DNA of 64,000 nucleotides from Actinomycetota bacterium (GCA_005885035.1 VAXZ01000111.1:1603-65602), one strand, 5' to 3'. Positions 1 to 22,241 are shown, numbered from the stretch's first letter. The notes: generated by a model from the sequence alone, not told the origin. A program made the numbers and translations.

Positions 1-1028
1 TCGCGGGAGGGATCGCCGGTCACGGATATGACGTCGATCTGGTCCTCAGCCGCGCTGAGGGCCATTACCTCCAGGAGGTACCCGACTCGGTTCGGATCGT
101 GGACCTTCATGCGCGACGCCTCCTCTCGAGCATCCCCGGCCTCGTGCGCTACCTCCGTCGCGACCGCCCGAACGCGATGCTCACGTCCATGAACTACGTG
201 AACATCGTCGGTATCTGGGCCAGGACGATCGCGCGGGTGGATACCAGGTTGATCGTGAACGAGCAGAACGCGCTTTCGCTCGAAGCCGCGCACTCGCCCC
301 GCCGGCGACACCGGCTCATGCCACGATTGATCAGGCACTTCTATCCATGGGCCGACGGCGTGACGTCCGTCGCGCGGGGAACGGCGGACGATCTCGAAAG
401 CACGGCGGGTGTGTCCCCGAGCCTGATCGAGGTCGTGCACAACCCGATCGTGACCACGGAACTGCGAGAGCTGGTGGCGGAGCCGCTGGGCCATCCTTGG
501 TTCGGCCGCGGACAGGTCCCCGTGGTGCTCGGGGTAGGACGTCTCGCACCCCAGAAGGACTTCGGGACGCTGATCCGCGCCTTCGCTCGGGTGATCGCGC
601 GACGTCCATGTCGCCTCATGATCCTCGGGGACGGGCCCGAGCGGGCGTCCCTCGAGATGCTCGTCGCCGAACGAGGGTTGACGGGATCGGTCGATCTTCC
701 TGGTTGGATCTCCAACCCATACCCGTATATGGCGCATGCGGGCGTCTTCGTGCTTTCCTCTCGATGGGAAGGGCTTCCTTCGGTGCTGATCGAGGCGCTC
801 TTCTGCGGGGTTCCGGTCGTCGCCACGGACTGCCTCAGCGGTCCCCGGGAGATCCTCGAGGGCGGCAGGTACGGCGCGCTCGTCCCGGTCGGGAACGAGG
901 ACGCGCTCGCCGCGGCTATCGAGAGAGCGTTGACGGGCGAGTTGGAGCTACCGCCGGCGGAGAGCTGGGAACCGTACGAACAGGAGACCGTCGTGAGGCG
1001 CTACCTGGAAGTCCTGGTGGGAGGGTAG
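1..1028 (+). CDS. Glycosyltransferase family 4 (GT4), 5'-truncated by the window edge
   Basis: Reading frame is open from nt 3. ORF track gives 99..1028, but the upstream translation (AGGIAGHGYDVDLV...) still looks like a GT-B N-domain. C-terminal GT4 motifs GVGRLAPQKDF and SRWEGLPSVLIEALFCGVPVVATD. Stop lies 2 nt before the next start. Confidence 0.8.
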   Translation, partial: AGGIAGHGYDVDLVLSRAEGHYLQEVPDSVRIVDLHARRLLSSIPGLVRYLRRDRPNAMLTSMNYVNIVGIWARTIARVDTRLIVNEQNALSLEAAHSPRRRHRLMPRLIRHFYPWADGVTSVARGTADDLESTAGVSPSLIEVVHNPIVTTELRELVAEPLGHPWFGRGQVPVVLGVGRLAPQKDFGTLIRAFARVIARRPCRLMILGDGPERASLEMLVAERGLTGSVDLPGWISNPYPYMAHAGVFVLSSRWEGLPSVLIEALFCGVPVVATDCLSGPREILEGGRYGALVPVGNEDALAAAIERALTGELELPPAESWEPYEQETVVRRYLEVLVGG

Positions 1029-1030
1029 CG

Positions 1031-2239
1031 ATGCGGAGGGTCGTCTACGCGCTGTCGCTGGTCCTGATCTTCACGATCCCCTGGGAAGGAGCGCTGCAAT
1101 CGGGGCTGGGAACCATCGCGACGGTCATGGGGATCGTGGTGACGGTGCTCTGGGTCGCGCTGATCGCGATGACCGGGCAGATGCGCCGGCCGATCACTTT
1201 CCTCTACGTGACCTGCATCTTCGTGTTCTGGATCGGGCTCACGGCCTTCTGGAGCGCCGATCCCGTCAACAGCATGAGTGCCGTCCTTCGATGGATCGAG
1301 TCCCTCGTTTTCACCTTCACGCTGTGGGACCTCTACCGGACCCGAACGGAAGTCCTGATGGGCCTCCAGGCATACGTGCTCGGCTCCTACGTGGCCATCG
1401 CGGGAGCGTTCGCGAACTACCTCGGTTCGCACGCCTTCTACACCCACTACGAGCGCTTCAGTCCCGGCAACACCAATCCGGACGGGTACGGTTTCACGGT
1501 CGCCCTTGGTGTCCCGATCGCCTGCTACCTCGCTGCGGCTCCCGAGACCTCGAGACGAGCCCGGGCGATCAACCTTGCGTACCTCCCGGTGGGCTTCGTT
1601 GGCATCGCGCTGTCGGGGACCCGGACCGCGTCGGTGGCGGCAGCGGTCGGTCTGCTGTTCGGCCTCGCCCTGCTCACCCGACTGAAACTATCCACGCGGG
1701 TCGCGGTCGTGGCGCTCCTGGCGTCGACGATGCTCGTGGTGTTGCCGATCGTTCAACCGTTGAAGTCGTTCCAGCGGCTCGGGACGACCGGAACCGACCT
1801 CAGCCAAGGCAACCTGAACGGCAGGACCGCGCAATGGGCTCAAGGCTTCGTCGCCCTCTCCGATCATCCGTTCTTCGGCGTGGGCACCGACCAATACCGT
1901 TCCGTGAACACCCTCGACAAGGTGGCCCACAACTCCTACCTGTCGGTCATGGTCGAGCTCGGTTTGGTTGGCTTCGCGATGTTCGCCTCGATCCTGTGGA
2001 TCGCTTTCCGATACGCCTTGATCCAGCCGAAGTGGGACAGGAGGTTCTGGGTCACCCTCCTCACGGTTTGGGCGATCGGCGCTTCCACGCTGTCCTATGA
2101 ACATCGGAAGACGACATGGCTCGTCCTGACGCTGTGCGTGGCAGCCGGGTCGATCGTCCGTGAACCCGCACCGCCGGCACGTGAGGAACCCGACACGGTC
2201 GCGTCGGTCCCGGTTGGCGTCCTGGGCCGGTCCGGATGA
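1031..2239 (+). CDS. O-antigen ligase / Wzy-like polymerase family membrane protein
   Basis: ATG at 1031 (aa 229 of ORF 347..2239; upstream part is out-of-frame read-through over the GT). Multi-TM protein with FFGVGTDQYRSVNTLDKVAHNSYLSVMVELGLVGF (Wzy_C/O-antigen ligase signature). ATGA overlap with the next gene. Confidence 0.7.
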   Translation: MRRVVYALSLVLIFTIPWEGALQSGLGTIATVMGIVVTVLWVALIAMTGQMRRPITFLYVTCIFVFWIGLTAFWSADPVNSMSAVLRWIESLVFTFTLWDLYRTRTEVLMGLQAYVLGSYVAIAGAFANYLGSHAFYTHYERFSPGNTNPDGYGFTVALGVPIACYLAAAPETSRRARAINLAYLPVGFVGIALSGTRTASVAAAVGLLFGLALLTRLKLSTRVAVVALLASTMLVVLPIVQPLKSFQRLGTTGTDLSQGNLNGRTAQWAQGFVALSDHPFFGVGTDQYRSVNTLDKVAHNSYLSVMVELGLVGFAMFASILWIAFRYALIQPKWDRRFWVTLLTVWAIGASTLSYEHRKTTWLVLTLCVAAGSIVREPAPPAREEPDTVASVPVGVLGRSG

Positions 2240-3102
2240 CCCTTCCGACGTTCGTTGGGATCGGGGTTCCGCGCGCCGGGACGACCTGGCTGCACACGCT
2301 GCTATCCGGGCATCCGGACGCGTACCTCCCCACACGGCGGAAAGAAGTGCGGTTCTTCGACCGCCACTTCGACCGAGGGGTCGAATGGTACGAGGGGTTC
2401 TTCTCTCCTCCGGAGGGAGCTGGCGGATACCGAGCGATCGGCGAGATCTCTCCTCAGTACCTCTACGGCCAAGAGTGCCCGACGAGGATCGCGACGGTGC
2501 TGCCGTCCGCGAAGCTCCTCGTGATGCTGCGGCATCCGGTCGACCGGGCGTACTCCCAGTACGGGTTCCTCTTGCAACGGCGCAACTACCGGGGGTCGTT
2601 CGAAGAGTTCCTGAGGGCCAGACCGCGAGCCCTCGAGATGGGCTATTACAGCCGCCATCTGCGGAGGTACCTCGATCGCTTCGATCGGGGACAGATCCTG
2701 CCCATCGTCTTCGAGGAAGCCGTCCGCGGCGGCGAGACGGTCCGTCGCGATCTGGCCGGCTTCCTCGGCATCTCCGAAGGTGCGTTCCCGGCGGCGATCG
2801 ACCGCGTGAACGCGAGCTCCATGCCCAAGTACCCACGGATCGCGAACCTCGCCGTCAGGACCGGCCGACGCCTCAGGAGGCGGCACCTGGAATCGATCGT
2901 CGATCTGGGAGGTCGATTGGGTGTTCGCCGGTTCATGACGAGCGGCACGCAGGTTCCGAGATTGGATACTGACCTCAGGAGCGAGCTCGGCCGGCGGTAC
3001 GTGGATGAGTTCGATGCGCTGGAAGGGATGCTGGGCATCGATCTGAGCTGTTGGAAGGATCGGCCGGCGAAACGGAGGACGGGCGATGCCGCGCCGGTCT
3101 AG
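2236..3102 (+). CDS. PAPS-dependent sulfotransferase (P-loop sulfotransferase fold)
   Basis: 5'-PSB motif VPRAGTTWLH and 3'-PB motif RHPVDRAYSQY. 288 aa. Confidence 0.8.
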   Translation: MTLPTFVGIGVPRAGTTWLHTLLSGHPDAYLPTRRKEVRFFDRHFDRGVEWYEGFFSPPEGAGGYRAIGEISPQYLYGQECPTRIATVLPSAKLLVMLRHPVDRAYSQYGFLLQRRNYRGSFEEFLRARPRALEMGYYSRHLRRYLDRFDRGQILPIVFEEAVRGGETVRRDLAGFLGISEGAFPAAIDRVNASSMPKYPRIANLAVRTGRRLRRRHLESIVDLGGRLGVRRFMTSGTQVPRLDTDLRSELGRRYVDEFDALEGMLGIDLSCWKDRPAKRRTGDAAPV

Positions 3103-4324
3103 GACACGACCGAACGGGGATCGGTCGCTCGACGTGTTGATCGTGTCCCAGCCCGCCGACTACGGTGTCGCGATCTACGTCCGGGAGCTGGCCCGATCGG
3201 CCGTGGAGGCCGGGCACGATGTGACCGTGATCAGCCCCCCGGAGTCGCGAGGGCCCTTGGCCAGCTGGGTCACGAGCGTCGGAGCCCGGCATCACACACT
3301 CGACATGGCCCGCAGGCCCGCCCTCCGTGATCCCTTCGACGTCTTGACCCTCCGCCGTCTCGCGCGAGGGCGCGACGTCCTGCACGTGCATTCGTCCAAG
3401 GCGGCCGCGCTCGGGCGCGTCGCGGCAGCGACCCTGCCGCGACGAGCCCGACCCGCGGTCGTGATGACTCCCCACTACTGGTCGTGGCTCGTCGGCGGGC
3501 GGCTTGAGGCCCTCTACCGGTGGATCGAGCGGCTGCTTGCTCGCCGCTGCGACGTGATCGTCGCCGTCTCCGAACGGGAAGAGGTGGAAGGTCGCTCGGT
3601 GCTGGGCGCGGACGCCCGACTGCTGTTGATACCGAACGGCGTCGATCGAGCACACTTCTCCCCTGAGGGACCGTCTGCGGAACGAGACGTCGGCCATCCC
3701 CTGATCGCCTGCGTGGGAAGGCTGAGCGAGCAGAAGGGTCAGGACGTCGCGATCCGCGCGCTCGCGCTGCTGAGCGATCGCACGTCGAGGCTCCGCCTCG
3801 TCGGGGGGGAGAGCACCCCGGGGCACCGCAGGCAGTTGGAGGAGCTCGCCAACTCGCTCGGCGTCGCGGAGCGGATCGAGTGGCGCGGTCCCGTGGACGA
3901 CACCGCCCCCGAGTACCGCGCCGCCGACGTGGTCATCGCGCCGTCCCGGTGGGAAGGCATGTCGCTCGCGTCGCTGGAGGCATTGTCGTGCGGTTCGGCG
4001 ATGGTCGCCACCGATGTGTCCGGGAGCGAAGCCCTCGGGTCCGCAGCCGTGATCGTGCCTCGAGACGATCCCGATGGGCTGGCCGGAGCCATCGACAGGC
4101 TCCTTCGCGATCCGGAGAAGCGGCGAGCGCTCGGGCTTGCGGCGAGAGCCCAGAGCCGGCCGTTCGACGTGTCCGCGACGATGCGTCGGAACCTCGATCT
4201 GTGGACCGAGCTCGTGCATGGAGGAGCCTGGCAAAGGAGTCAGGAGGACGGCTCGGGAGCGGTCGGGTCGGCCGTGCCCGGGACGCCTTCCGCTGCAACA
4301 GGGACGTGGACGACGGATGCGTGA
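3086..4324 (+). CDS. Glycosyltransferase family 4
   Basis: SRWEGMSLASLEALSCGSAMVATDVSGS and GRLSEQKG motifs. 412 aa. Overlaps the flanking genes. Confidence 0.85.
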   Translation: MPRRSRTRPNGDRSLDVLIVSQPADYGVAIYVRELARSAVEAGHDVTVISPPESRGPLASWVTSVGARHHTLDMARRPALRDPFDVLTLRRLARGRDVLHVHSSKAAALGRVAAATLPRRARPAVVMTPHYWSWLVGGRLEALYRWIERLLARRCDVIVAVSEREEVEGRSVLGADARLLLIPNGVDRAHFSPEGPSAERDVGHPLIACVGRLSEQKGQDVAIRALALLSDRTSRLRLVGGESTPGHRRQLEELANSLGVAERIEWRGPVDDTAPEYRAADVVIAPSRWEGMSLASLEALSCGSAMVATDVSGSEALGSAAVIVPRDDPDGLAGAIDRLLRDPEKRRALGLAARAQSRPFDVSATMRRNLDLWTELVHGGAWQRSQEDGSGAVGSAVPGTPSAATGTWTTDA

Positions 4325-5138
4325 CGCCTCCGACGACACGCTCCCGCCCGTCCGGTACGTGAGCATGCCCGGGAGCCCCTACACGGGTTCCACACTCTTG
4401 GGGATGCTGATGGCCAATCACCCTGCTTGTACCTCGATCGGCGCGGCGACGGGTCTCACGGCCAAGGTGGATCTGGACACCTACCTGTGCTCGTGCGGCC
4501 TGCTGTTCACCGAGTGCTGCTTCTGGCATCGCATCGCCCGACGGACGGAGGAGCTCGGGTATCCGGTGACCGTGTTCAAGACGAACTTCTGGAACACACA
4601 TGTCCGGGTCTCGGGACGCCGATGGCTCAACGGGGTCGTCGTGAGCTCGCTCGGGAACCCCTCGTTGACGGCCATCCGCGACGCGACGGTCGGCAGGACC
4701 CCTCCGGTTCGCCGGCGCGTCTCGGAGGCGAGGGCAACCACGTGGAGCCTGGCTCGGTCGATCCTGGAGGAGACGGGCAGGAGCGTGTTCGTGGACACGG
4801 CGCGTGATCATCAACGTCCGCGCTACCTCGCAGGTGCACCTGGCCTGCGGCTCAAGGTCATCCATCTGGTCCGCGATCCGCGCGGCAACGTCGCCAGCAT
4901 CATGAAGCACACCGGCGTCGACGTCGGGCACGCGGCTCGCCAGTGGCGCCACTACAACGTGGAGGCCGATCGCGTCGGTCGCTCGTTCCCACGCGGAGCG
5001 TGGATGCGGCTGCATTACGAGGAGCTGTGCTCGCAACCGCAAGAGACACTGGAGCGCGTCGCGATGTTCATCGGGGTGGAGCCCATCCCGGTGTCCGATC
5101 ACCTGCAGCCATCCGAGCATCATGTGATCGGCAACTGA
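4317..5138 (+). CDS. Sulfotransferase (P-loop fold)
   Basis: ATG at 4317 (aa 82 of ORF 4074..5138), overlapping the GT stop by 8 nt. SMPGSPYTGSTLLG (PSB-like loop) and KVIHLVRDPRGNVAS (3'-PB-like RDPR). Confidence 0.7.
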   Translation: MRDASDDTLPPVRYVSMPGSPYTGSTLLGMLMANHPACTSIGAATGLTAKVDLDTYLCSCGLLFTECCFWHRIARRTEELGYPVTVFKTNFWNTHVRVSGRRWLNGVVVSSLGNPSLTAIRDATVGRTPPVRRRVSEARATTWSLARSILEETGRSVFVDTARDHQRPRYLAGAPGLRLKVIHLVRDPRGNVASIMKHTGVDVGHAARQWRHYNVEADRVGRSFPRGAWMRLHYEELCSQPQETLERVAMFIGVEPIPVSDHLQPSEHHVIGN

Positions 5139-5150
5139 CCTCGGGTACGA

Positions 5151-6008
5151 GTGGCCATGAGCGACTCTCGCCGGCTGCTCGTGTTCGTCCACATCAACAA
5201 GACGGCTGGAACGACCGTGCGATACATCCTGCGCAGCTCGTACGGGGCTCGGCATTGCGACGTGGAGCCGTGGCACGGCGCCTGGACTGACCCCCCGTTC
5301 TCGACCCCCGACCTGCAGCGCGTCCGTCGGCTCTACCCGAGGCTCACCAGCATCGCCGGCCACCGCGTGAGCGGATACATCGACCTGGAGGAGCCCGGGA
5401 CCGAGTTCAGGTACCTGACCTTCCTCCGCGAACCGATCGCCCTCTGTGCTTCTCGCTTCCAATATCGCCTCGACCACCGGAAGAGGACCGATCTTTCCTT
5501 CGAGGCATGGATCCAGAAGGACTGGGTTCGCAACGCCCAGACGCAGCGGATCGGCGGTACGGCGGATGCGAACGAGGCGATCTCGGTGATCTCCCGGAAA
5601 GAGATGTTCGTCGGCGTCACCGAGGCGTTCGACCGCTCCATCGTCTTGCTGCGCGCCCTCCGCGCACCTGACCTCGACATCCGCTACGCGCCGGTGAACG
5701 TCGCCAAGAGCTCGCGCATCGCGAAGGATCTTCTGGACGATCCTCGCACCCGGGCGATGATCGTGGAGGCGAACCAGGCCGATCTCGAGCTCTACCGGCA
5801 CGTGAAGGAGGAGCTCTTCCCGGCGATGGAGCGCGGATACGGTCCTTCGCTCGCCGATTCCGTCGCAGCGTTCCGTGACGGTCAGGCGAAGCGATTCAAC
5901 CGGCGGCATCTGGCCATGTACGGGCTCAAGCAGCGCTTGGTGCTCCAGCCGGCTATGAAGCTCTACCGACGGTCGAGCAGGCACGACGTCGTCGACGTGC
6001 CTCATTGA
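5151..6008 (+). CDS. Sulfotransferase, Sulfotransfer_2-like (HS2ST/Gal3ST-type)
   Basis: N-terminal FVHINKTAGTT resembles the FVHIPKTGGT 5'-PSB of Sulfotransfer_2 enzymes. 285 aa. Starts 13 nt after the previous gene. Confidence 0.6.
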   Translation: MAMSDSRRLLVFVHINKTAGTTVRYILRSSYGARHCDVEPWHGAWTDPPFSTPDLQRVRRLYPRLTSIAGHRVSGYIDLEEPGTEFRYLTFLREPIALCASRFQYRLDHRKRTDLSFEAWIQKDWVRNAQTQRIGGTADANEAISVISRKEMFVGVTEAFDRSIVLLRALRAPDLDIRYAPVNVAKSSRIAKDLLDDPRTRAMIVEANQADLELYRHVKEELFPAMERGYGPSLADSVAAFRDGQAKRFNRRHLAMYGLKQRLVLQPAMKLYRRSSRHDVVDVPH

Positions 6009-6308
6009 GCATCAGGGACCGGACCCTCAACGATCCAGCCGAAGGCTGAGGTCCCTGCCGATGAGCTCCGCGGTCTTGCCGATGCCGTCTCGGAAGCGCT
6101 CGCGCAACTCCGTCGCGAGCTTCCTCGGGCGATCGGGGCGCGCGACGCAGGTTCCCGCGTCCGTGTTCGTCGCGCCCAGTCCCCCGCTCGCTTCGGGATC
6201 CACGGATCGACCTCTCTCCCGAGCGAGTCGTTCGTGAAGACGCGCTCGAGCAGCATGGGGCCGTCGTCCCCGCCTTCGCCGCGCCGACGACGATGAGATC
6301 GGGAAGCG

Positions 6309-7769
6309 TCACGGTGCGCTCGGATCGGACCCGTCGATCGCTTCCCGGATCGCGTCCTTGATCTCGATCACGACGCTCTCGAACGCTCGGTCGGTATCGA
6401 TGCGATGGACCACCGAACCATCGAATCGGAGATCGGCGCTGATCGCATGCCGCAGCCGCACGTAGCCTTCGGGCTCCCGCTTCTGTCGGTGAGCGTTCCG
6501 AGCGAGCGTGACCTCGAGCGGGGCCGTGAGATGGAACACGATGTCGGGAGCGGGGATGTCCCGATACAGCCGACCTTCGAGCGCAGCCAAGACGCGGCGA
6601 GCCGACGGACGACCGGAGCGCAGGGGGAGATGCCCGAGCTGCGGCCCGTCCGGAGCACCCCCCGTTCCCGAGGGGTACCGATCACTCAGGACGATCGTTC
6701 CGCCAGGGGACCGCTCGAGGGCTCCGAGGATCAGCGCCCGTCGCTCGTACGCCAGCATGATGGAGCGGAACGCGAACAGGAGCGGGTAGCCCCCTCGCGT
6801 CGGAGGATCCTCCTCCATCTTGGCTTCGACCCGAAGAAGTCGCTGCTCGGGGAACAGGGTCCGGAACGCGGGCAGCAGGACATGGGGGAGGAAGGTGAGC
6901 CACGTGCTCGGCGGCTTCCCCGCGTGGATCCGCCGGACCTGATGGTCCCGACCGAGCCAAGCCTCGACCTCGTTCAGGATCGTGGACTTGCCACTCGCCT
7001 CGGACCCCACGAACGCGATCGATCGGACGGGGATCTGCGGCGTCTCGCCGCCGGCTCCGCCCAAGCCGACGAGGACCTGGTGCACCACATCCTCGAATCC
7101 CTCGCGGGAGTCGTCGGTGATCTCGGCGATCAGGAGTCGTTCGCGGATCGCTTCCCTCACCGCCAGGCGTTCGAAGAGCTCCACGGCACGCGCGAGCCTG
7201 CCCGCGACCTGGTTGCGGCTCCGTCCGGCCAGCTCACGGCGCGGATCTGGACGTCTCATCGCACGTTCCACCAGCAGATCGAGCGGAGCCCTCACGTAGA
7301 CGATGCGGTCGGGCATGGGAACCAGGCGAGCGAAGCGGTCCAGATCGACGTCCCCGTACGGAGCATCGCTGTACACGAATAGTTGGTACGCCGAGAGGAG
7401 GACCCCTTCGTCGACCAGAACCGTCCTCCGGTCGGACGCGCGGCGAGCCAACTCGTGCACGCCAACCTTCCGGACGATGTTCAGCCGGTAGTTGTACTTC
7501 GCGAACGTGGATGGCGCGTAGCGCCGGAGTCGGTCGAACGCGAAGCGGACGAACTCCCCATCCCGCCTATACGCTCGGACGAACGACGGGAACGAGATCA
7601 CGTCCGCCGCGAGATTGATCGTGCTGGGATCGGTTATCCACCGCAGGCCCGCACGGTCGCGCACCAGATCGACGGACAGGATCGCGCGAGAGCCGTTGCT
7701 CCGCCGACGAACCTCCTTCGCGAGGCTCGTCTTCCCCGCTCCGCTGCACCCGATGAACTCAACGATCAT
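6309..7769 (-). CDS. Tandem double P-loop NTPase/kinase-like protein, function unknown
   Basis: Two Walker A motifs (FIGCSGAGKTS and FVGSEASGKST), each followed by similar downstream blocks (DEGVLLSAYQLF). Likely start is M34 (MIVEF) at 7769, which forms an ATGA overlap with the stop of the upstream GT gene. ORF track start is 7868. Confidence 0.55.
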   Translation of the reverse strand: MIVEFIGCSGAGKTSLAKEVRRRSNGSRAILSVDLVRDRAGLRWITDPSTINLAADVISFPSFVRAYRRDGEFVRFAFDRLRRYAPSTFAKYNYRLNIVRKVGVHELARRASDRRTVLVDEGVLLSAYQLFVYSDAPYGDVDLDRFARLVPMPDRIVYVRAPLDLLVERAMRRPDPRRELAGRSRNQVAGRLARAVELFERLAVREAIRERLLIAEITDDSREGFEDVVHQVLVGLGGAGGETPQIPVRSIAFVGSEASGKSTILNEVEAWLGRDHQVRRIHAGKPPSTWLTFLPHVLLPAFRTLFPEQRLLRVEAKMEEDPPTRGGYPLLFAFRSIMLAYERRALILGALERSPGGTIVLSDRYPSGTGGAPDGPQLGHLPLRSGRPSARRVLAALEGRLYRDIPAPDIVFHLTAPLEVTLARNAHRQKREPEGYVRLRHAISADLRFDGSVVHRIDTDRAFESVVIEIKDAIREAIDGSDPSAP

Positions 7770-8929
7770 CGGTGGGGCACCGCCGGTCGTGCCGTCTCCA
7801 GATACACGGCATCGGTGGCCGTACGCATGACGGGCAACGTGAAACGCGCGCTCACGTGCGCTCGGCACAGGCGACCGATCTCGCGCCGCTCGTCGGACGA
7901 CATCGCTCGGTAACGCCTGATCTGCATCGCGAACCCTTCGACGTCACCCGGCCGGACGAACGGGATGAACCCGGCGTCTTCGGCGATCTCTCGGTGGGGC
8001 GGGATGTCGGACAGGATGACCGGGCATCCGGCAGCCATCGCCTCCAGGACGGCCACCGGCAGACCCTCGCCGTTCGAGGTGGAGACGAAGACGTCGGCTT
8101 CGGCGCACGCGACGAACACCTCTTCTCGGGGGATGAGGCCTCGCAACGTGACGCGGTCCCGAAGGCCCGCGCGGTCGATCCGGGCTTCCAGCTCCGTTCC
8201 GAGCCGTCCCCCACCGATGAAGACGAGTCGACCGCCGTCGTCGCGGTCCACGCTGCTTGCGAACGCGTCGAGCATGACGAACGGGTCCTTCACGACATCG
8301 AGACGACCTACGGACAGGACGGTGAAGCGCCCATCCTCCCTGCCGACCGGGGCGGCAGCGACGGCGCGGTCGACCCGGTCGATGTCAGCTCCGTTCTGGA
8401 CGACCCGCCAACGATCGCGTACGAGCCATTTCAGCGCCCGCGGCAGGCTCTCGTACGCCGACCGGCTGCAGAAGATCACGCGATGGAAGGTCGCGAGGGG
8501 GACGACCATCAACGCCTTGTCCCGAAGCCGGTAATCGTAGAACGAATCCTGGACGGTGTAGACCAGCGAACGCCGGAGCCGGCGCGATCGGCGCCGGGCG
8601 AGCACCGCGAGCAGCAACAGGACGCCCGACTGCGGGGCGTGAGCATGGATGACGTCGTAGTCATCGGCATCCAGCGCGCGCCCCAAACTTCGGAAGAACC
8701 CTCTCAGCGTTCCGTCACCAGCGAACATCGTGATCTCCGAAGGTGGGGTCAATCGCGGCACGAAGTAGGTGCTGATCGAGAGATCGCGCTCTCCGATCAA
8801 CGGGAGACAGTGCTCGTTGTACTGCCCGTTGGTCTCGCCGAGCATCAGGATCAGGTGCAAGACCTTGAGCCTTCGCACGGCGGCATCCTGCGTGCCGGTC
8901 GGGACGGGTCGGCCCTCGCTATCGAGCAT
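7766..8929 (-). CDS. Glycosyltransferase family 4
   Basis: GEGLPVAVLEAMAAGCPVILSDIPPHREI; GT-B fold. 387 aa. Confidence 0.85.
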   Translation of the reverse strand: MLDSEGRPVPTGTQDAAVRRLKVLHLILMLGETNGQYNEHCLPLIGERDLSISTYFVPRLTPPSEITMFAGDGTLRGFFRSLGRALDADDYDVIHAHAPQSGVLLLLAVLARRRSRRLRRSLVYTVQDSFYDYRLRDKALMVVPLATFHRVIFCSRSAYESLPRALKWLVRDRWRVVQNGADIDRVDRAVAAAPVGREDGRFTVLSVGRLDVVKDPFVMLDAFASSVDRDDGGRLVFIGGGRLGTELEARIDRAGLRDRVTLRGLIPREEVFVACAEADVFVSTSNGEGLPVAVLEAMAAGCPVILSDIPPHREIAEDAGFIPFVRPGDVEGFAMQIRRYRAMSSDERREIGRLCRAHVSARFTLPVMRTATDAVYLETARPAVPHR

Positions 8930-9716
8930 GTGTTGTCAAGCGGGGCCGGAGCTCCGTCGCGAGCAGGTCGGCCGTGGCTCCCTCGGTATCGAGGCGAAAT
9001 ACCTCCGGTGCCCCCCAGGCCTCGATGCGACGGAGCACCGCGTCGAACGATCGGCGGTACGTGTCGAGGAACCGGTAGCCCTCCTCGACCCCCTCGCCCT
9101 TCGTCCTGTGGAGCTGAGAACGCCCGTTGATCCTCCGCCACAGAACATCGTCGGGTGCATCCAGCCAGACGATCGCGCTGAGCTCTCGAACCCATAACCG
9201 AAGCATGTCCTCCCACCACGCATCGAAGGCGGGCGTGGCCGTGAACGGCTTCCCTTCAGCCTTCAGACGAACGAGGGCGTAGATCGGCCCCTGATCGAGC
9301 ACGGTGACGCCGCCGCGGCGGCGCATCTCACGTCGGAGGACGGTCCGCCACCGCGTCACGTACACCAAGAGCTTGAACTCCGGCCACGTCATCCGAGGCG
9401 GTCGGCGGTCGGTCGCGAGGATCGGCAGCAGGCGCGGGGTCGCCGTCGCGACCCGGAGGAGGTGGGATGGCAGCCGCGTGTGGATGAAACCGCCCACGGC
9501 GAACTCGGAGTCCTCGCACATTGACCGCGTGAGGGTGGACTTCCCGGAACCCGCCACGCCTGCGACTTCGACCAGGCGTGGCTTCGGCAGCGTCGGAAGG
9601 CGGGACCAGCGACGATGATCGATGGTGGTGCCCACGATGCCGTCGAAACCTCCCTTTCGGCCGAGATGCTCGTGCTTCGATGGGAAACGGTACGCGGGCA
9701 CCTCGCTTGCGGCCAT
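8919..9716 (-). CDS. P-loop NTPase/kinase-like protein, single-module paralogue of 6309..7769
   Basis: Walker A VAGVAGSGKSTL. LDQGPIYALVRL and WLDAPDDVLWRRI blocks resemble each half of the tandem protein. Confidence 0.5.
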   Translation of the reverse strand: MAASEVPAYRFPSKHEHLGRKGGFDGIVGTTIDHRRWSRLPTLPKPRLVEVAGVAGSGKSTLTRSMCEDSEFAVGGFIHTRLPSHLLRVATATPRLLPILATDRRPPRMTWPEFKLLVYVTRWRTVLRREMRRRGGVTVLDQGPIYALVRLKAEGKPFTATPAFDAWWEDMLRLWVRELSAIVWLDAPDDVLWRRINGRSQLHRTKGEGVEEGYRFLDTYRRSFDAVLRRIEAWGAPEVFRLDTEGATADLLATELRPRLTTHAR

Positions 9717-10059: not shown

Positions 10060-11439
10060 ATGGCTGTTCGCGAACCCCTCGTGGTTCTCCCCACGCCTCG
10101 CGTGTTGCGGTTCCGCCCTCCTCTTTCGAGTCTCATCCCCGTCACGGACGCGCTTGCCCTCGGGATCGTGTACGTCCTCGTGGGGTTCCACCCCGTCGCG
10201 ATCGTGTTCGCCGTGCTCACGTTCCTGATCCTCAACAGCGACTCATCTCGGATCTTCCGGGTCAACCCCCGTCTCGGCGACGACGCAGCCTGGTTGCTGG
10301 GTCGCGTGGCCGTCTCCCTCCTGTTGCTGATGTCGGTGGTGGCGGTCGCCAAGCTCCCGCTCGACATCCGCGCGCACCTGAGCAACCTCACGGTGATCGC
10401 GCCACTCTCCGCGATCGCCGTGATCATCGGCCGGGCGGCCGCGTACGCGTTGGGTCGGGCGGCGAAAGGTCGAGGCGTCGCCTCCGAGCGAACCCTGATC
10501 GTCGGAGAAGGCGAACTGGCGATCGGGCTCGCGAAGACCCTGCTGGACCATCAGGAGTTCGGGTTGCGGCCCGTCGGGTTCCTGGGCCGATCGCAGGATG
10601 GGTCCGCGGTCCTCCCCTTCCTCGGTGAGTGCGCGGAACTCGATCACGTCGTTCACCAGCATTCGGTGAGTCGAGTGCTCATCGCATTCGGCGATACCGA
10701 CGACAAGGATCTCGCGACCGTCCTTCGCGCCAGCGAGCGGACGCCCGCGGAGATCCACGTCGTTCCGCGATTCTTCGAACTGAGCGGGATCCCCCAGGGG
10801 GCCGCCGTTGACGACGTCTGCGGCATCCCGCTGTTCCACCTCCGCCGGCCGGCGCTCCGTGCGGCGGCACGGGTGGAGAAGCGGGCCTTCGACCTCGTTG
10901 GATCCACGCTCCTGCTCCTGCTCACCGCGCCGCTCCTCGCGATCGCCGCCCTCGCCGTCCGCTTGTCGAGCCCGGGTCCGATCCTGTTCCGGCAGAAGCG
11001 GGTCGGCCTCAACGGTCAGGTCTTCGAGATCGTCAAGTTCCGGACGATGCGCGAGAATGACGACTCCGACACGGCATGGTTCTCGGGCGACGACGATCGG
11101 GTGACCAGAGCCGGGCGCATCCTCCGGATGACGAGCATCGATGAGCTGCCGCAGCTGTTGAACGTGCTTCGGGGAGAGATGTCACTCGTCGGTCCCCGAC
11201 CGGAGCGACCCCACTACACGGACCAGTTCGCGGCCACCGTGTCCCGCTACGACGACCGACACCGGGTGCTCGGTGGGATCACCGGGTGGGCACAGATCCA
11301 TGGTCGATCGCGTGGCTTGGACGCCGTGCCGGAACGCGCACGCCTGGACAACTACTACATCGAGAACTGGTCGGTCTGGCGGGACCTCGTGATCATCGTC
11401 CGGACGGTCGCCGTGCTGCTGCGCGGCGACGACGGCTAA
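10060..11439 (+). CDS. Polyprenyl-phosphate glycosyl-1-phosphate transferase (WbaP/exopolysaccharide 'sugar transferase' family)
   Basis: N-terminal TM region. C-terminal catalytic domain with KRAFDLVGS...[19 protein letters not shown]...[24 protein letters not shown]. Confidence 0.9.
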
Positions 11440-12095
11440 GCGGTCGGCGTTCCGTCCGAGGAGAGGTAGCCAAGGCCTCTCAACGCTTCATCGATCCGGC
11501 AGGACCCGAACTCCGTGACGAGGCGCCGGAGGTCGCGCCGCGTCCGACCTCGCCCCGTGTAGGCGCGGAACCGGAGGGTCCTCGGCATGCCCGCGGGGGG
11601 GATCTCGTCCGGGTCCAGCTCCCAGGGGTGGAAATAGAACGTGAACCATGGGTTGGAGCGCAGGTGCTTCGCTACGCCCCAACGGAACACCGGATAGGGG
11701 ATCAAGCGGAAGTACGCGCCGCCGGCCCACGGGACGTGGATCGTCGCGATCGGGACGCGGGTCATCTGGATCTCCAACAGGCCGGGCCGGATCTCCGTGA
11801 CGGTCGCCCCTGGTGGGACCGTTGCCGAGATCTGCCCGTACCGATCGTGTTGCGTGAATCCGAAGTAACTGGAGTCGTACCGGTATCCGGCCTCAGCGAC
11901 CAGATCAAGGACGAGATCGCTCACGGAGAAGTTGGGTGCACGGACACCGAGAACCTCGGAGCCCGCTACCTGTTCGAGGCGGTCCTTCGACCGGCCGAGC
12001 TCCTCCTTGATCTCATCGGGGGTCAGCTGGTTCAGGTTCCGGTGCAGATAGGTATGACTGGCGATCTCGTGTCCATCGTCCACGATCCGCTGCAC
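11436..12095 (-). CDS. Polysaccharide deacetylase (NodB, EPS/PEP-CTERM-locus subtype), N-terminally disrupted
   Basis: HEIASHTYLH (NodB motif 2). The frame stays open upstream to 12266 and encodes DWFHAENV..TFFVLGWVAERYP, but it is closed by an in-frame TAG at 12267..12269 with no start codon. First usable start is GTG at 12095. Confidence 0.6.
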   Translation of the reverse strand: MQRIVDDGHEIASHTYLHRNLNQLTPDEIKEELGRSKDRLEQVAGSEVLGVRAPNFSVSDLVLDLVAEAGYRYDSSYFGFTQHDRYGQISATVPPGATVTEIRPGLLEIQMTRVPIATIHVPWAGGAYFRLIPYPVFRWGVAKHLRSNPWFTFYFHPWELDPDEIPPAGMPRTLRFRAYTGRGRTRRDLRRLVTEFGSCRIDEALRGLGYLSSDGTPTA

Positions 12096-12392
12096 GACCG
12101 CGGGGTAGCGTTCCGCGACCCACCCGAGGACGAAGAACGTCGATCGGACCCGGGCGGCTGCAAGGATATCCAGGAGCTCGTGAACGTTCGGTTCGAGCCT
12201 CGACTCCAGCCGGTCCCAATCATGCGTTGGCAGGCTCGCCCGGACGTTCTCGGCGTGGAACCAGTCCTAGCCTAGGGGACCCCTGGTTCGATGCCACCCG
12301 CGTCCACCATGCTCGAGTTCAAGCCGATGGACGGGGGGTTCAAGGGCGAAACGTGGCCTGCTGACCTGCCCCGCGAGATCGCGTACGTCGTC

Positions 12393-12410
12393 TACACCGG
12401 TTGCGTGATG
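12393..12410 (+). promoter_or_regulatory. Shared 18-nt motif TACAYCGGTTGCGTGATG, copy 2
   Basis: Lies between the divergent deacetylase gene (-) and the metallophosphoesterase gene (+). Confidence 0.4.
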
Positions 12411-12568
12411 TCGCACCTACGGTCTCGGACCTAGGGTGCAGTGAACGATCGCGCGCCGCCGCGCGAGCTTCCCTTGCGTCTGCACCCTTGAGTGGCGGCG
12501 AGACATGGGGGAGTCGTCGTGGAGCAGCCATCAGGAGCCAAGTGGGTCTCAACCTGTTGGGACGCATC

Positions 12569-13868
12569 ATGATCGTGTCACCGCGGAAGCCGCTCGAATG
12601 GGTGGTTGTCTTCTCATTGCTCGTGGCCGCAACCGTCCTGGTTCCCGTCACCGCCGAGGCCTCCAGCAACTGCGGCACCTCGAGCGGCCACAACCTTTGC
12701 CTCTCGGCTGCTGACACCCTGACCGGTGAACAGACCGTCACCGTCACGAACTCGCCCAACAACGGCGTCGTGTTCGCGACGTGGGTCCCGTCGGGCGGGA
12801 AAGCCCTGCAACTCATAGAGATCGATGCGCCCTCCCCGGCCACGACCGACTATTCCTTCGTGTGGCCGACCCAGAAATACCTGGACGGCTCGGGCACCCT
12901 GTCCCTACAGGCAGGTTCGATCGGCTCGGCGGCCGTCATGATCGCCGTCACCCTGAGCAATGGCAACACAACGGACTTCCAACACAGCCCGAAGGACTGG
13001 ATGAACTCCCTACCCGGATCGTGGACGGGGCCGGAGGATCCGACGATCCTCGCGGTCGGGGACGGCCCGTCGAACGAGGTGACGTCCAACGCCGTCGCCA
13101 GCCGGATCGCCGCACTCGATCCACCGTTGTTCCTGTTCCTCGGCGATGTCTATGAGACGGGCACGTTTACAGAGTTCCGGAACCATTACGGGGCTTCTGA
13201 GCTCGACACGCCTGGGGCGGGGACGCTCTGGGGAGAGACCGCCGACATCACGCAGCCCACCCTCGGGAATCACGAGAAGCCCAACTCAGCGGCCTTCATC
13301 GACTACTGGCACGGGAGGCCGCTCTTCACGAGCTTCACGTTCGGCGGGACCCTGTTCCTTGACATGAACTCAAGCGCGTCGATGAGCGCGACCAGCGCGC
13401 AGTACCAGTTCGTCAAGAGCGCGGTCACCAACCCTTCAGCCCCGAACTGCATCGTCGCCTTCTGGCATATCCCCGCCGTTGTAACGAACACGTCGGTGAC
13501 GGCCGGTCAGACAGCCATGTGGGCGCTGCTCGCGAACAACGGCGTCGATCTACTGGTGACCGGGCACCAGCACAAGATGGTGGAGTTCAACCCGCTCGAC
13601 GCCGATCTCAACCCCACGCCGCAGGCCCACCTGGTGCAGCTGGTCTCCGGAGCGGGGGGGCACAAGCTCGCCGGGCCGACCTCCGTCGGAGCACGCGTCG
13701 CGTGGTCGAAGGGGGGCACGGCGGGATTGCTCTCGCTGTCGCTCGCCGGAGCAGCCGGGGGGAACGCTGCAACGAGTATCGGCTGGCAGTTCCAGACCGT
13801 AAGCGGGAGCGATCTCCATGATGGATCGGTCGACTGTGGCTCCGTCGCGAACCACGCCCCGGTCGTGA
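12569..13868 (+). CDS. Secreted calcineurin-like metallophosphoesterase (3' end frameshifted)
   Basis: ATG at 12569 (aa 57 of ORF 12401..14590) followed by a signal peptide MIVSPRKPLEWVVVFSLLVAATVLVPVTAEA. Phosphoesterase motifs LFLGDVYETG, TLGNHE and VTGHQHK. The rest of the ORF track's 729-aa read-through is low-complexity Arg/Gly out-of-frame sequence. Confidence 0.7.
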
Positions 13869-13892
13869 ACTCCGAGCTCCCCCACGACGTCC

Positions 13893-14525
13893 GTGTCCTT
13901 CGACACCGCCGGGACGTACGTCCTGCGGCTCACCGGAGACGACAGCGCGCTCCAGTCCTCGGACGACGTCACGGTGACGGTGTTACCGGAAGGGGTGGCC
14001 ACGCTCACGGTGCCCATCGGCGCGAGTTCGGACGACGCCGAAGAGTCATCCGTCGACGGATCGGTCGCGCTGGGGAACCCAGCCCTCAAGATCGTGAACC
14101 GCGCCGGTGTGAACCAGACCGTGGGGCTACGGTTCGCCGGATTGTCGATCCCGCAGGGCGCGACCATCCAGAATGCCTACATCCAGTTCCAGTGCAGGGT
14201 GCAGACCACCGCGGCTGCGTCGCTCTTGATCGAGGGGCAGGCAGCGGACAACCCAAGTACGTTCGCGAGGATCACGAACAACATCTCCTCCCGTGCTCGA
14301 ACGTCGGCCGACGTCGGGTGGGTCCCGGCGCCGTGGGGAACGGTCGGAGCACAGGGTCCCGATCAACAGACGCCGGATCTCACCAGCGTCATGCAAGAGA
14401 TCGTCAACCGCGGAGGATGGGGCCCCGGCGATCCCATGGTCTTCATCATCACCGGCACGGGAGTCCGCACGGCGGAAGCCTTCGACGGCCTGTTCGCGCC
14501 CGTCCTTCACGTGACGTACGCGTAG
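13893..14525 (+). CDS. C-terminal beta-rich domains of the metallophosphoesterase, encoded in the +1 frame
   Basis: Frame opens right after TGA at 13866..13868. SFDTAGTYVLRLTGDDSALQSSDDVTVTV is Ig/PKD-like, followed by a domain with IPQGATIQNAYIQFQ. Confidence 0.5.
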   Translation: MSFDTAGTYVLRLTGDDSALQSSDDVTVTVLPEGVATLTVPIGASSDDAEESSVDGSVALGNPALKIVNRAGVNQTVGLRFAGLSIPQGATIQNAYIQFQCRVQTTAAASLLIEGQAADNPSTFARITNNISSRARTSADVGWVPAPWGTVGAQGPDQQTPDLTSVMQEIVNRGGWGPGDPMVFIITGTGVRTAEAFDGLFAPVLHVTYA

Positions 14526-14586
14526 GTCCGCGGACGGGCATCGCCTCGTTCCGGCGTTGCCGGTTGGCACTCGCCTGGCTATCCTG

Positions 14587-14613
14587 TTAGCACTCAAGGC
14601 CTAGGAGTGCTAA
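14587..14613 (+). promoter_or_regulatory. CIRCE operator (HrcA-binding inverted repeat) upstream of groES
   Basis: TTAGCACTC-AAGGCCTAG-GAGTGCTAA is a perfect 9-N9-9 match to the CIRCE consensus, 53 nt upstream of groES. Confidence 0.9.
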
Positions 14614-18628: not shown

Positions 18629-19614
18629 TCGCGTAGATCCTTCCCGGTGAGATTGATGAAGACGGTCTCGAGGGTGGGCTCGTCGAGCGACACGTCGTGC
18701 ACGGGGAACCCGCCGGCCTCGGCCGCCTGGATCACGCGCGGCAGGACGCCGGCGGAGCCGCGGACGGTCAGCTGGACCGTTCCACCCAGGACGGCGGTCC
18801 CGGTGACCCCTTCCAGGTCGCGAAGGTGGGCCCCGAGGCGCTCGGGTTGCTCACCCGCCTGGACCCGGACGATCGCGTCGCCGCCGACCGTCCGCTTGAG
18901 ACCCGCCGGCGTGTCGAGCGCCAGGATCCGGCCGTGGTCCATGATCGCGACCCGCTGGCAGAGCTTGTCGGCCTCCTCCATGAAATGGGTGGTCAGCACG
19001 ATCGTCTGGCCCTCTCGGTGGATCTGACCGAGGATCTCCCACAGAGCCAGCCGGGATTGGGGGTCGAGCCCGGACGTCGGTTCGTCCAGGAACAGGACAT
19101 CGGGGCGGTGGGCCACGGCTCGGGCGAACAGCAGACGCTGCGCCATCCCACCGGACAGGGTCGAGACGTCGGCGTCGGCCCGGTCGGACAACCGGAAGAG
19201 CTCGAGGAGGCCGTCCGCCGTCCGTGCCGCCGCCCGCGCTCCCATGCCGAAGTACCGTCCGTGGAAGTAGAGGTTCTCCCGGACCGTCAGGCTTCGATCG
19301 AGCGTGTTCGTCTGGGAGACCACCCCGACCTTCGCCTTGGCCGACGGCGGGTCCGCGACCACGTCGATGCCGGCGACGATGGCCTTGCCCGAGGTGGGGA
19401 TGACCCGCGTCGTCAGCATCCCCACGGTGGTGGTCTTGCCCGCACCGTTCGGTCCGAGCAGGCCGAAGATCTCGCCGGCGCGGACGTCCAGGTCGAGCGC
19501 GTCGACCGCTTTGACACCGGTGGGGTAGACCTTGGTCAGCTGGGTCGCCCGGATGACGAGCCCATCATCGGCTGCATCGGCCGTCGTGGTCGTGGTTGAA
19601 GGAACGGTATCCAC
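18625..19614 (-). CDS. ABC transporter ATP-binding protein
   Basis: Walker A GLLGPNGAGKTT, signature LSGGMAQRL, Walker B VLFLDEPTSGLD. Confidence 0.9.
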   Translation of the reverse strand: MDTVPSTTTTTADAADDGLVIRATQLTKVYPTGVKAVDALDLDVRAGEIFGLLGPNGAGKTTTVGMLTTRVIPTSGKAIVAGIDVVADPPSAKAKVGVVSQTNTLDRSLTVRENLYFHGRYFGMGARAAARTADGLLELFRLSDRADADVSTLSGGMAQRLLFARAVAHRPDVLFLDEPTSGLDPQSRLALWEILGQIHREGQTIVLTTHFMEEADKLCQRVAIMDHGRILALDTPAGLKRTVGGDAIVRVQAGEQPERLGAHLRDLEGVTGTAVLGGTVQLTVRGSAGVLPRVIQAAEAGGFPVHDVSLDEPTLETVFINLTGKDLRE

Positions 19615-19662
19615 GGGTACCCACGATACGGCGGGTCCGGGGTTCGGACACTCCGGCGCGGA

Positions 19663-20061
19663 TCAGACGATCGGTTTCTCGACGCCGGCTCGAGCGATCC
19701 CGGACACGAGCCCCGCGACGAGCACGATGTTGGTGACGGCGAAGATCCACCAGAACCACGCTGCCGACCCAGCCGGCACCGAGACCATCGCGTGCAGCGT
19801 GGTCACGAGCGCCGTCAGGCCCGACTCGAGGACGAACGCCCACGACCACCACCACGCGTCGTCCAGCCGGCGCGAGATCATCAGCGCCAGCGCCGCCGAG
19901 GACAGGCCGGCGATGCCGCAGACCCGAACGTACGTGTAGTCGGGGTAGGGCACCTGATCGAACCAGGTGACCAGGATCCATCGCGGGCTAACCGCGATCG
20001 CGGTTCCGCACACTCCCCAGACGGCAGCGAACAGCAGAAGCGCGCGTCGCAGGAACGCCAT
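19663..20061 (-). CDS. Small integral membrane protein (132 aa), first gene of the ABC-2 exporter operon
   Basis: MAFLRRALLLFAAVWG...; 4 predicted TM segments. The ORF track's 595-aa extension is antisense to the AlkP gene. Confidence 0.5.
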   Translation of the reverse strand: MAFLRRALLLFAAVWGVCGTAIAVSPRWILVTWFDQVPYPDYTYVRVCGIAGLSSAALALMISRRLDDAWWWSWAFVLESGLTALVTTLHAMVSVPAGSAAWFWWIFAVTNIVLVAGLVSGIARAGVEKPIV

Positions 20062-20199
20062 CCCGGGCCCTTCCTCCTTGCTCGGGCCCGAAGCGGCCCA
20101 AAGTCGCTGGTAGGATACGCGAACCGCGGATGGCTCCTGTCGCACGAGCGCGCCCGCCGTCCGCTCATCGGACCGCGGACCGGAGGGGATACGAGCAAC

Positions 20200-21612: not shown

Positions 21613-22241
21613 CCGAGCGGCGCGGTTTCACCGTCTGGTTCACCGGCCTTTCGGGCGCCGGCAAATCGACGATCGCCGAGATGCTGTACCACGAGTTCCA
21701 GGCCCGCGGGATGAAGACCGAGATCCTCGATGGTGATGTCGTGCGGCAGAACCTGTCCAAGGGTCTCGGCTTCTCCAAGGAGGACCGCGATCTCAACATC
21801 ATGCGGATCGGGTTCGTGGCGAACCTCCTCACGCGCAACGGCGTCGCTACGATCTGTTGCCCTATCAGCCCGTACCGAGAGACCCGGGACGCTGTTCGCG
21901 CAGAGGTCGGGGACTTCGTCGAGGTGTACGTCCACGCGACCGTCGCAGAGATCGCGGCGCACCGGGACCCGAAAGGCCTTTACAAGAAGGCGCTGGCGGG
22001 AGAGTTGACCGGCTTCACGGGCGTCGATCCAGACGCGCCGTACGAGGCGCCGGAGCACCCTGAGCTCGTCGTCGACACGATGGTGGAGACGCCCGAAGAG
22101 TCCCTGCAGCGCGTGCTCACGACGCTGACCGCGCTCGGGTACCTCGAGAGCGACGAGCCGATGGTCGAGGGCGACCGCGTGCACTCCGGCATGACCGATC
22201 TGCGCGTGCACGAGACGGGGCACGTCGTCAAGGAACACTGA
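21609..22241 (+). CDS. cysC: Adenylyl-sulfate (APS) kinase
   Basis: WFTGLSGAGKSTIA P-loop, DGDVVRQNL.GLGFSKEDRDLNIMRIGFVA. 210 aa. Confidence 0.9.
   Translation: MTERRGFTVWFTGLSGAGKSTIAEMLYHEFQARGMKTEILDGDVVRQNLSKGLGFSKEDRDLNIMRIGFVANLLTRNGVATICCPISPYRETRDAVRAEVGDFVEVYVHATVAEIAAHRDPKGLYKKALAGELTGFTGVDPDAPYEAPEHPELVVDTMVETPEESLQRVLTTLTALGYLESDEPMVEGDRVHSGMTDLRVHETGHVVKEH

Follow-up and report, generated by a model that had tools for sequence, protein, structure and literature searches.

Gene content of the locus

The window, that is the whole stretch of 64,000 nucleotides of Actinomycetota DNA that was analysed, begins inside a polysaccharide gene cluster whose features are collected in Table 1. 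The gene under study, here called the target gene, is the last of a forward-strand operon with the order GT4 glycosyltransferase, Wzy, Sulfotransfer_1/3, GT4, Sulfotransfer_3 and target. The successive junctions are a 2-bp gap, overlaps of 4, 17 and 8 bp, and an 18-bp gap; at the 4-bp overlap the stop of Wzy runs into the start of the following sulfotransferase gene (ATGA). As judged from the sequence, the operon is tightly, and by all appearances translationally, coupled. The two neighbouring sulfotransferases carry loops of a different type, GVPRAGTTW and MPGSPYTGST, as the original prediction had stated, and both pass PF13469 and PF00685 (cut-offs 27 and 22 bits, respectively). With these Sulfotransfer_1/3 neighbours coupled to the target gene, two sulfotransferase families do occur in one operon.

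Table 1. Features of the cluster and of the target gene, with positions in the window
Feature	Position	Strand	Basis
GT4 glycosyltransferase truncated by the edge of the window; leads the visible operon	3..1028	+	PF13692, PF00534
Wzy-type polymerase / O-antigen ligase-like membrane protein	1031..2239	+	PF04932 69.4 bits; ATG 1031
Sulfotransfer_1/3-type sulfotransferase, 5'-phosphosulfate-binding (PSB) loop GVPRAGTTW	2236..3102	+	PF13469 64.5, PF00685 60.1 bits
GT4 glycosyltransferase	3086..4324	+	PF13692 114.9, PF13439 93.9 bits
Sulfotransfer_3-type sulfotransferase (MPGSPYTGST)	4317..5138	+	PF13469 45.7, PF00685 27.2 bits
Target: predicted soluble sulfotransferase, Gal3ST/HS2ST/HS6ST type, 283 aa	5157..6008	+	PF06990, homologues, AF2/Foldseek
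Target: PSB loop FVHINKTAGTT (F12-T22, Lys17)	5184..5216	+	Conservation, HS6ST alignment
Target: AGHR motif with His71, candidate catalytic base	5355..5366	+	Conservation, HMMER alignment
Target: 3'-phosphate-binding (3'-PB) strand-turn-helix REPIALCASRFQY (R93-Y105)	5427..5465	+	Conservation, HS6ST/HS2ST alignment
Fourth sulfotransferase remnant (starts MTLPDLIVVGAAKAGTT)	6009..6312	-	L004 homologue of 294 aa
519-aa protein, two Walker-A P-loops, kinase-like	6309..7868	-	Weak AAA_33, AAA_18 and thymidylate-kinase matches
GT4 glycosyltransferase	7766..8929	-	PF00534 91.6 bits
265-aa P-loop protein, deoxynucleoside/thymidylate-kinase-like fold	8919..9716	-	AF2 pLDDT 83; Foldseek
Priming phosphoglycosyl transferase (Bac_transf)	10060..11439	+	PF02397 221.7 bits
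Polysaccharide deacetylase with DUF3473 domain	11436..12266	-	PF01522 93.4, PF11959 91.6 bits
APS kinase, start approximate, ~15 kb from the cluster	21621..22241	+	PF01583 192.6 bits

A convergent unit on the reverse strand follows the target gene and consists of the sulfotransferase remnant, the 519-aa double P-loop protein, a GT4 gene and the 265-aa P-loop protein. The 519-aa protein had no sequence match in the PDB, and the best Foldseek matches of the 265-aa protein are dAK, dGK and TMK at E~2e-6. We considered the Walker-A proteins of the cluster as divergent sulfotransferases or APS kinases and rejected this, their best fold matches being deoxynucleoside and thymidylate kinases and their sequence matches being confined to the P-loop. 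One guess would be that they are sugar or lipid-linked glycan kinases; databases name them only generically.

Altogether, the window holds Bac_transf, three GT4s, Wzy, three sulfotransferase genes and one remnant. Wzx and Wzz lie off the left window edge and are present in the syntenic relatives L001-L003, so that window and relatives together show the gene content of a synechan-type Wzx/Wzy locus for sulfated extracellular polysaccharide (EPS). A long forward-strand ORF with a calcineurin-like phosphoesterase domain (12401-14590) adjoins the cluster; its frame probably shifts near 13.9 kb, where there is a separate high-GC3 ORF (13869-14525), and in L001, too, a metallophosphatase flanks the cluster.

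APS kinase catalyses the last step of PAPS synthesis, and its gene is present in the window; that it serves the sulfation cluster, at a distance of 15 kb, would be conjecture. Directly upstream of it on the same strand lies a type I phosphodiesterase/nucleotide pyrophosphatase gene (PF01663), the stop-to-stop frames of the two overlapping within ~19600-22241. ATP sulfurylase (CysD/N or Sat) was looked for as well, and the window genes searched contained only the APS kinase. The remaining genes of the window are housekeeping genes (GroEL, TCA-cycle enzymes, UvrD and others).

The target gene and its product

The target ORF runs from GTG 5151 to TGA 6008 and encodes 285 aa. Since its homologues are 281-286 aa long and begin with MS, the true start is probably ATG 5157, giving 283 aa; residues are numbered here from GTG 5151. 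The GC contents of its three codon positions (0.65/0.45/0.84) are coding-like for a window of 67% GC, in which GC stays between 65 and 73% along the whole length. Relative to L004, its best genome match (95% identical, from the soil MAG 'Actinobacteria bacterium AC_66', VAYU01000063), the gene has no indels. The ORF is confirmed as real and, with the many homologues described below, FVHINKTAGTT is no chance match. The assembly index held no record of the exact protein.

No hydrophobic segment was found in the target protein, the maximal 19-residue Kyte-Doolittle mean being 1.14. Its pI is 9.9, its C-terminal helix is basic and partly amphipathic in the AF2 model, and the PSB loop begins at residue 12, at the extreme N-terminus. 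The type II Golgi membrane topology of the PF06990 family is thus absent, and the target is predicted to be a soluble, anchor-free protein, unlike the Golgi enzymes.

Family assignment

PF06990 (Gal-3-O-sulfotransferase) is the sole Pfam family that the target matches above the curated cut-off (34.2 bits, E 1.7e-8; gathering cut-off 27), and a sulfotransferase profile match, on which the original prediction depended, is thereby established. The match covers residues 140-273 only, corresponding to profile positions 228-360 of 402, in the C-terminal half. The family first proposed, Sulfotransfer_2 (PF03567), scored 14.9 bits (E 0.03), under its gathering cut-off of 22; the proposal holds in that HS2ST and HS6ST are the nearest enzymes by fold and by profile, but not as formal membership of PF03567. 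An NCBIfam search gave no matches for the target or for the sulfotransferases at 2236-3102 and 4317-5138.

A word-indexed protein search returned 575 target homologues at E<=1e-3. The best 120 of them are 61-89% identical to the target and nearly all are unnamed metagenomic proteins, a few carrying the JGI label 'Galactose-3-O-sulfotransferase'. A profile built from 28 close homologues and searched against clusters at 50% identity found 5274 clusters at E<=1e-3; tightening the threshold to 1e-10 and then to 1e-30 left 1469 and 373. Homologues are therefore plentiful in prokaryotes and metagenomes, and the family is abundant in sequence databases. The earlier description of the family as mainly eukaryotic accordingly applies to its characterised enzymes only, so many homologues being encoded in the genomes and metagenomes of bacteria.

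For conservation we used a divergent set of 53 representatives, 27-69% identical to the target. PF06990 was matched by 39 of these and PF03567 also by 39 (E<=0.01; best PF03567 E 2.3e-10), and the clade therefore straddles the border between the two families. When the target was searched alone against PDB sequences, only a marginal HS6ST match came out (E 0.64), whereas the profile of the 53 sequences reached significance with HS6ST3 (E 4.8e-9) and also matched HS2ST (E 6e-4). The alignments to HS6ST and HS2ST cover the PSB loop and the 3'-PB element and, towards the C-terminus, a segment with N..D..LY.

According to a review, searches beyond animals for candidate polysaccharide sulfotransferases rely on PF03567 and PF06990, the bacterial enzymes being poorly characterised, and the Pfam seed of PF06990 consists of three sequences only (PMC11625862). 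The PF06990 match of the target does not allow a galactose-3-O specificity to be deduced. None of the papers searched described a biochemical study of a bacterial member of the Gal3ST/HS2ST/HS6ST-like group.

Fold and active site

The AF2 model of the target (pLDDT 82.9, pTM 0.83) contains a strand at 7-12, the PSB loop, a helix at 17-34, a strand at 84-92 and a helix at 95-108. In a Foldseek search against the PDB, the first rank was taken by HS2ST (4ndz/3f5f; E 4e-5, probability 1.0, TM 0.52), followed by HS6ST (5t03; E 2e-4, probability 1.0, TM ~0.5) and then by cytosolic SULTs and a bacterial sulfotransferase. The top 15 matches are all sulfotransferases, as are nearly all of the top 50, and by this comparison the target has the alpha/beta sulfotransferase fold with its central parallel sheet, with TM-scores to solved structures of only ~0.5 and identities of 15-17%.

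The PSB element has the expected strand-loop-helix form with its lysine: strand 7-12 leads into FVHINKTAGTT and on into helix 17-34. Within the divergent set H14 is invariant (53/53), K17 is kept in 50 (two others have Arg) and G20 in 52; K17 is also invariant in the 28 close relatives. The loop is of the PKT type and the protein has no Walker-A motif GxxxxGK[ST], for which reason we rejected a kinase role for the target as unlikely.

His71, in the AGHR motif, is kept in 52 of the 53 divergent relatives, and HMMER sets G70-H71 onto G-F-Y-H-G-H of HS2ST (His140/His142). The HS2ST numbering is derived from the PSB lysine at fusion position 385, which we take to be Lys83. The catalytic base of HS2ST is His142 (PMC6094399). 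Because H71 aligns at the motif that holds this residue, His71 is the candidate base of the target.

At the 3'-PB element, strand 84-92 is followed by R93-E-P95 and by helix 95-108, which bears S101. The Arg and Ser that the original prediction required for binding the 3'-phosphate are both there, R93 being kept in 52, P95 in 53 and S101 in 51 of the 53 divergent relatives. In the alignment, the target segment REPIALCASRFQY stands opposite LRDPVSRYLSEW in HS6ST and IRDPIERLVSYYY in HS2ST, with the same R-x7-S spacing in all three. The consensus described for this element in PF03567 is PxxRxxS (PMC11625862), and the target departs from it, reading P95-I-A-L98-C-A-S101. Position 98 (5442-5444) is Arg in 47 of the 53 divergent relatives and Leu or Met throughout the clade of the target, while Arg93 and Ser101, which flank Leu98, are retained.

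Conservation of the cluster across phyla

The genome loci that carry relatives of the target come from MAGs in 57 of 58 cases, the exception being Jannaschia faecimaris (27% identical), and all close relatives belong to uncultured organisms. Among Actinomycetota the carriers are Thermoleophilia, Gaiellaceae and Solirubrobacterales and among Chloroflexota they are Anaerolineales and Caldilineaceae; others, at 52-58% identity, are Acidobacteriota, Pirellulales (Planctomycetota), a Nitrosomonas and a Flavobacteriales. When L004-L053 were compared with the window, the EPS cluster proved to keep its set of genes, in a comparable order, across phyla; it is conserved in at least 50 MAG loci of several phyla. 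The companions of the target gene are Wzy, GT4s, one to three Sulfotransfer_1/3 genes and several P-loop proteins, and syntenic contigs carry Wzx, Wzz/BY-kinase and Bac_transf. P-loop proteins lie in the cluster in L031, L032, L034-L036, L043, L045, L048, L050 and L051. The non-actinobacterial loci have a ~530-aa P-loop protein, a ~240-aa P-loop protein and the target sulfotransferase adjacent and in constant order, and a homologue of the 265-aa P-loop protein stands immediately upstream of the sulfotransferase in six phyla. In two Acidobacteriota loci, an APS-kinase homologue lies less than 10 kb from the cluster.

Between phyla, the target sulfotransferase is 52-58% identical. This identity is so high that the whole cluster appears to have spread horizontally.

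Damaged sulfotransferase genes

Two of the four sulfotransferase genes of the cluster are damaged in the window. Compared with L004 and L002, the gene at 4317-5138 has a ~110-bp deletion at 5137, which creates a premature TGA and removes the last 44 residues (SMRLSGVEAIRED...GYEWP) that are present in both relatives. In relatives, the equivalent Sulfotransfer_3 gene extends into the beginning of the target gene. The remnant at 6009-6312 has lost ~600 bp (residues ~19-213) relative to L004 and has gained two 1-bp insertions, and would be either a pseudogene or an assembly artefact. Both lesions may be either true mutations or assembly errors. With two of four genes affected, the sulfation pathway may be decaying in this genome.

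Proposed function and alternatives

We consider it likely that the target is a soluble cytoplasmic PAPS-dependent carbohydrate O-sulfotransferase that modifies one repeat-unit position of a sulfated EPS. The analysis itself shows the family, the fold, the motif conservation, the operon structure, the conservation of the cluster and an APS kinase in the window; that PAPS is used, that His71 acts as the base, and what is sulfated, where and to give which product, is inference. In the proposed mechanism, Lys17 of FVHINKTAGTT would hold the 5'-phosphosulfate and Arg93 and Ser101 the 3'-phosphate, and His71 would deprotonate a sugar hydroxyl, which would then attack the sulfur in line. PAPS is cytoplasmic, and the target has neither an export signal nor an anchor; action in the cytoplasm would follow from both. 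The enzyme would sulfate a single defined position of the repeat unit while this is linked to undecaprenyl diphosphate on the inner side of the membrane, ahead of flipping by Wzx and polymerisation by Wzy. The Sulfotransfer_1/3 paralogues would sulfate other positions, yielding a sulfated extracellular polysaccharide, and the cluster probably builds a sulfated slime polysaccharide. Since there are one priming transferase, three GT4s and, in intact relatives, up to four sulfotransferases, sulfates could be about as many as sugars in the polymer. For Wzx/Wzy clusters, sulfation in the cytoplasm has published precedents (PMC8205485, PMC13390465, PMC11641403). Several points count against the proposal: the PF06990 match is confined to residues 140-273 and PF03567 stays below cut-off, TM-scores and identities to solved structures are low, the middle Arg of PxxRxxS is replaced in the clade, the window genes searched gave no ATP sulfurylase, and two of the four sulfotransferase genes are damaged.

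Glycolipids and other small glycoconjugates known as acceptors of sulfotransferases include cerebroside (Gal3ST1), Nod factor (NodH) and trehalose (Stf0), and the target could be an active PAPS-dependent sulfotransferase acting on a glycolipid or another small glycoconjugate instead of the repeat unit of the cluster, which we regard as unlikely. The only family cut-off passed is that of PF06990, a family in which the enzymes studied so far act on glycolipids and glycans (PMC11625862), and a protein as basic as this one, with its basic and partly amphipathic C-terminal helix, could sit on the membrane. The undecaprenyl-diphosphate-linked repeat unit is itself a membrane-bound glycolipid, however, and therefore membrane affinity does not separate such an acceptor from the repeat unit. 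Translational coupling of the target gene to GT4, Wzy and other sulfotransferase genes, and its persistence in the same Wzy/GT4 cluster across phyla, argue for the repeat unit.

It is more improbable still that sulfation precedes assembly of the repeat unit, with the target acting on a nucleotide-sugar precursor or on the first lipid-linked sugar and the glycosyltransferases then handling the sulfated sugar. The interleaved order of sulfotransferase and GT4 genes is compatible with such stepwise modification during assembly. Against this, we know of no nucleotide-sugar sulfotransferase in the family of the target, and the open clefts of HS2ST and HS6ST bind oligosaccharides (PDB titles).

The loss of the PxxR arginine in the clade of the target, the decay of two neighbouring sulfotransferase genes and the placing of plant tyrosylprotein sulfotransferase and HS6ST in one InterPro family entry (PMC11625862) could be taken to mean that the target is degenerate, or a non-sulfotransferase that shares the fold; it might serve for binding or as a scaffold, sulfate tyrosine or catalyse some other reaction. 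This is very improbable given that the active-site Lys, His, Arg and Ser are each kept in at least 50 of the 53 relatives, that the clade is strongly conserved over the best 120 of the 575 homologues, that the gene has no indels relative to L004 and that the lack of a Walker-A motif makes a kinase unlikely.

Comparison with known sulfotransferases and clusters

To our knowledge, the characterised HS2ST/HS6ST/Gal3ST-type sulfotransferases are eukaryotic Golgi enzymes. HS2ST (3F5F, 4NDZ) is the best structural match of the target. The two align at the PSB loop, of PKT type, and at the 3'-PB element, R-D/E-P....S, and the candidate base His71 aligns at the HGH motif of HS2ST; identity is only 16-17% and the C-terminal helices differ. 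HS6ST, another eukaryotic Golgi enzyme, is the best sequence-profile match as HS6ST3 (5T03), with three segments: FLHIQKTGGTT aligns to FVHINKTAGTT of the target, YYITMLRDPVSRYLSEW to RYLTFLREPIALCASRF, and the C-terminal N..D..LY aligns too. It carries large insertions relative to the target (TM ~0.5), and its acceptors are heparan sulfate oligosaccharides (PDB titles). The Gal-3-O-sulfotransferases (PF06990, for example cerebroside sulfotransferase), although the only family whose cut-off is passed, are matched in the C-terminal part only. Whereas HS2ST is a transmembrane protein of the Golgi lumen that acts on the finished polymer (PMC6094399), the target is bacterial, apparently anchor-free and presumably cytoplasmic.

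At the level of the cluster, one of the closest published cases is described for Synechocystis 6803, where the Wzx/Wzy-dependent synechan xss cluster contains XssA and XssE, of distinct subfamilies, and makes an experimentally sulfated EPS (PMC8205485). By this description it resembles the cluster in the window in having Wzx/Wzy and several sulfotransferases, but it belongs to a cyanobacterium, sits on a plasmid and has eight glycosyltransferases and other regulators (PMC8205485). Pfam accessions for XssA and XssE were not found in the supplements of that paper. The wps-1 cluster of the actinomycete Actinoplanes missouriensis, for which a sulfated EPS is predicted, is also of the Wzx/Wzy type and has a kinase-like protein and the sulfotransferases WpsB and WpsH, which come from different families (PMC13390465). 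It is likened to the target cluster by its published description; its sulfotransferases have IPR051135 and IPR037359 signatures, not PF06990.

Sulfated capsules of Vibrio involve several sulfotransferases together with cysDNC (PMC11641403). NodH, Stf0, KpsS and the enzymes of the Vibrio/Cobetia sulfated-CPS clusters are PAPS-dependent and cytoplasmic, act on glycolipid or polysaccharide precursors and are sometimes linked to cysC/cysDN (PMC11625862, PMC11641403); NodH belongs to PF13469 and Stf0 to PF00685 (PMC11625862). Unlike the target, none of these is reported as Gal3ST/HS2ST/HS6ST-like.

Implications

In summary, our analysis supports the original interpretation of the target gene. The regiospecific sulfation at more than one position that it suggested is a reasonable inference, and one that others have put forward for clusters of this sort (PMC8205485, PMC13390465). 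Both the class of enzyme and the logic of the system are familiar, clusters of the Wzx/Wzy type with multiple sulfotransferases having been published. Because the idea of several families acting at several sites is in print and the family is abundant in databases, the target is a well-supported candidate and no surprise.

A wider joint reading is possible, and we hold it to be rather doubtful as a whole. In it, one horizontally spread cluster, present in at least six phyla, would provide for some four steps of glycosyl transfer and encode as many as four sulfotransferases, along with between three and five dNK/TMK-like P-loop domains. Its product would be a glycosaminoglycan (GAG)-like polymer with roughly one sulfate for each sugar, and perhaps phosphate too. 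The cluster could then account for the sulfated GAG-like polymers reported from soils, from granular sludge and from anammox granules, and the soluble clade may stand near the prokaryotic stock of the Golgi enzymes of the HS2ST/HS6ST/Gal3ST type.

Sulfated EPS has long been treated as essentially a cyanobacterial trait (PMC8205485, PMC13390465). The cluster described here marks uncultured soil and sludge bacteria that likely make sulfated extracellular polysaccharides. A soluble, anchor-free bacterial relative of 283 aa would be easily expressed for regiospecific glycan sulfation. The target is a solid candidate enzyme, and the cluster, conserved in multiple phyla, is worth attention.
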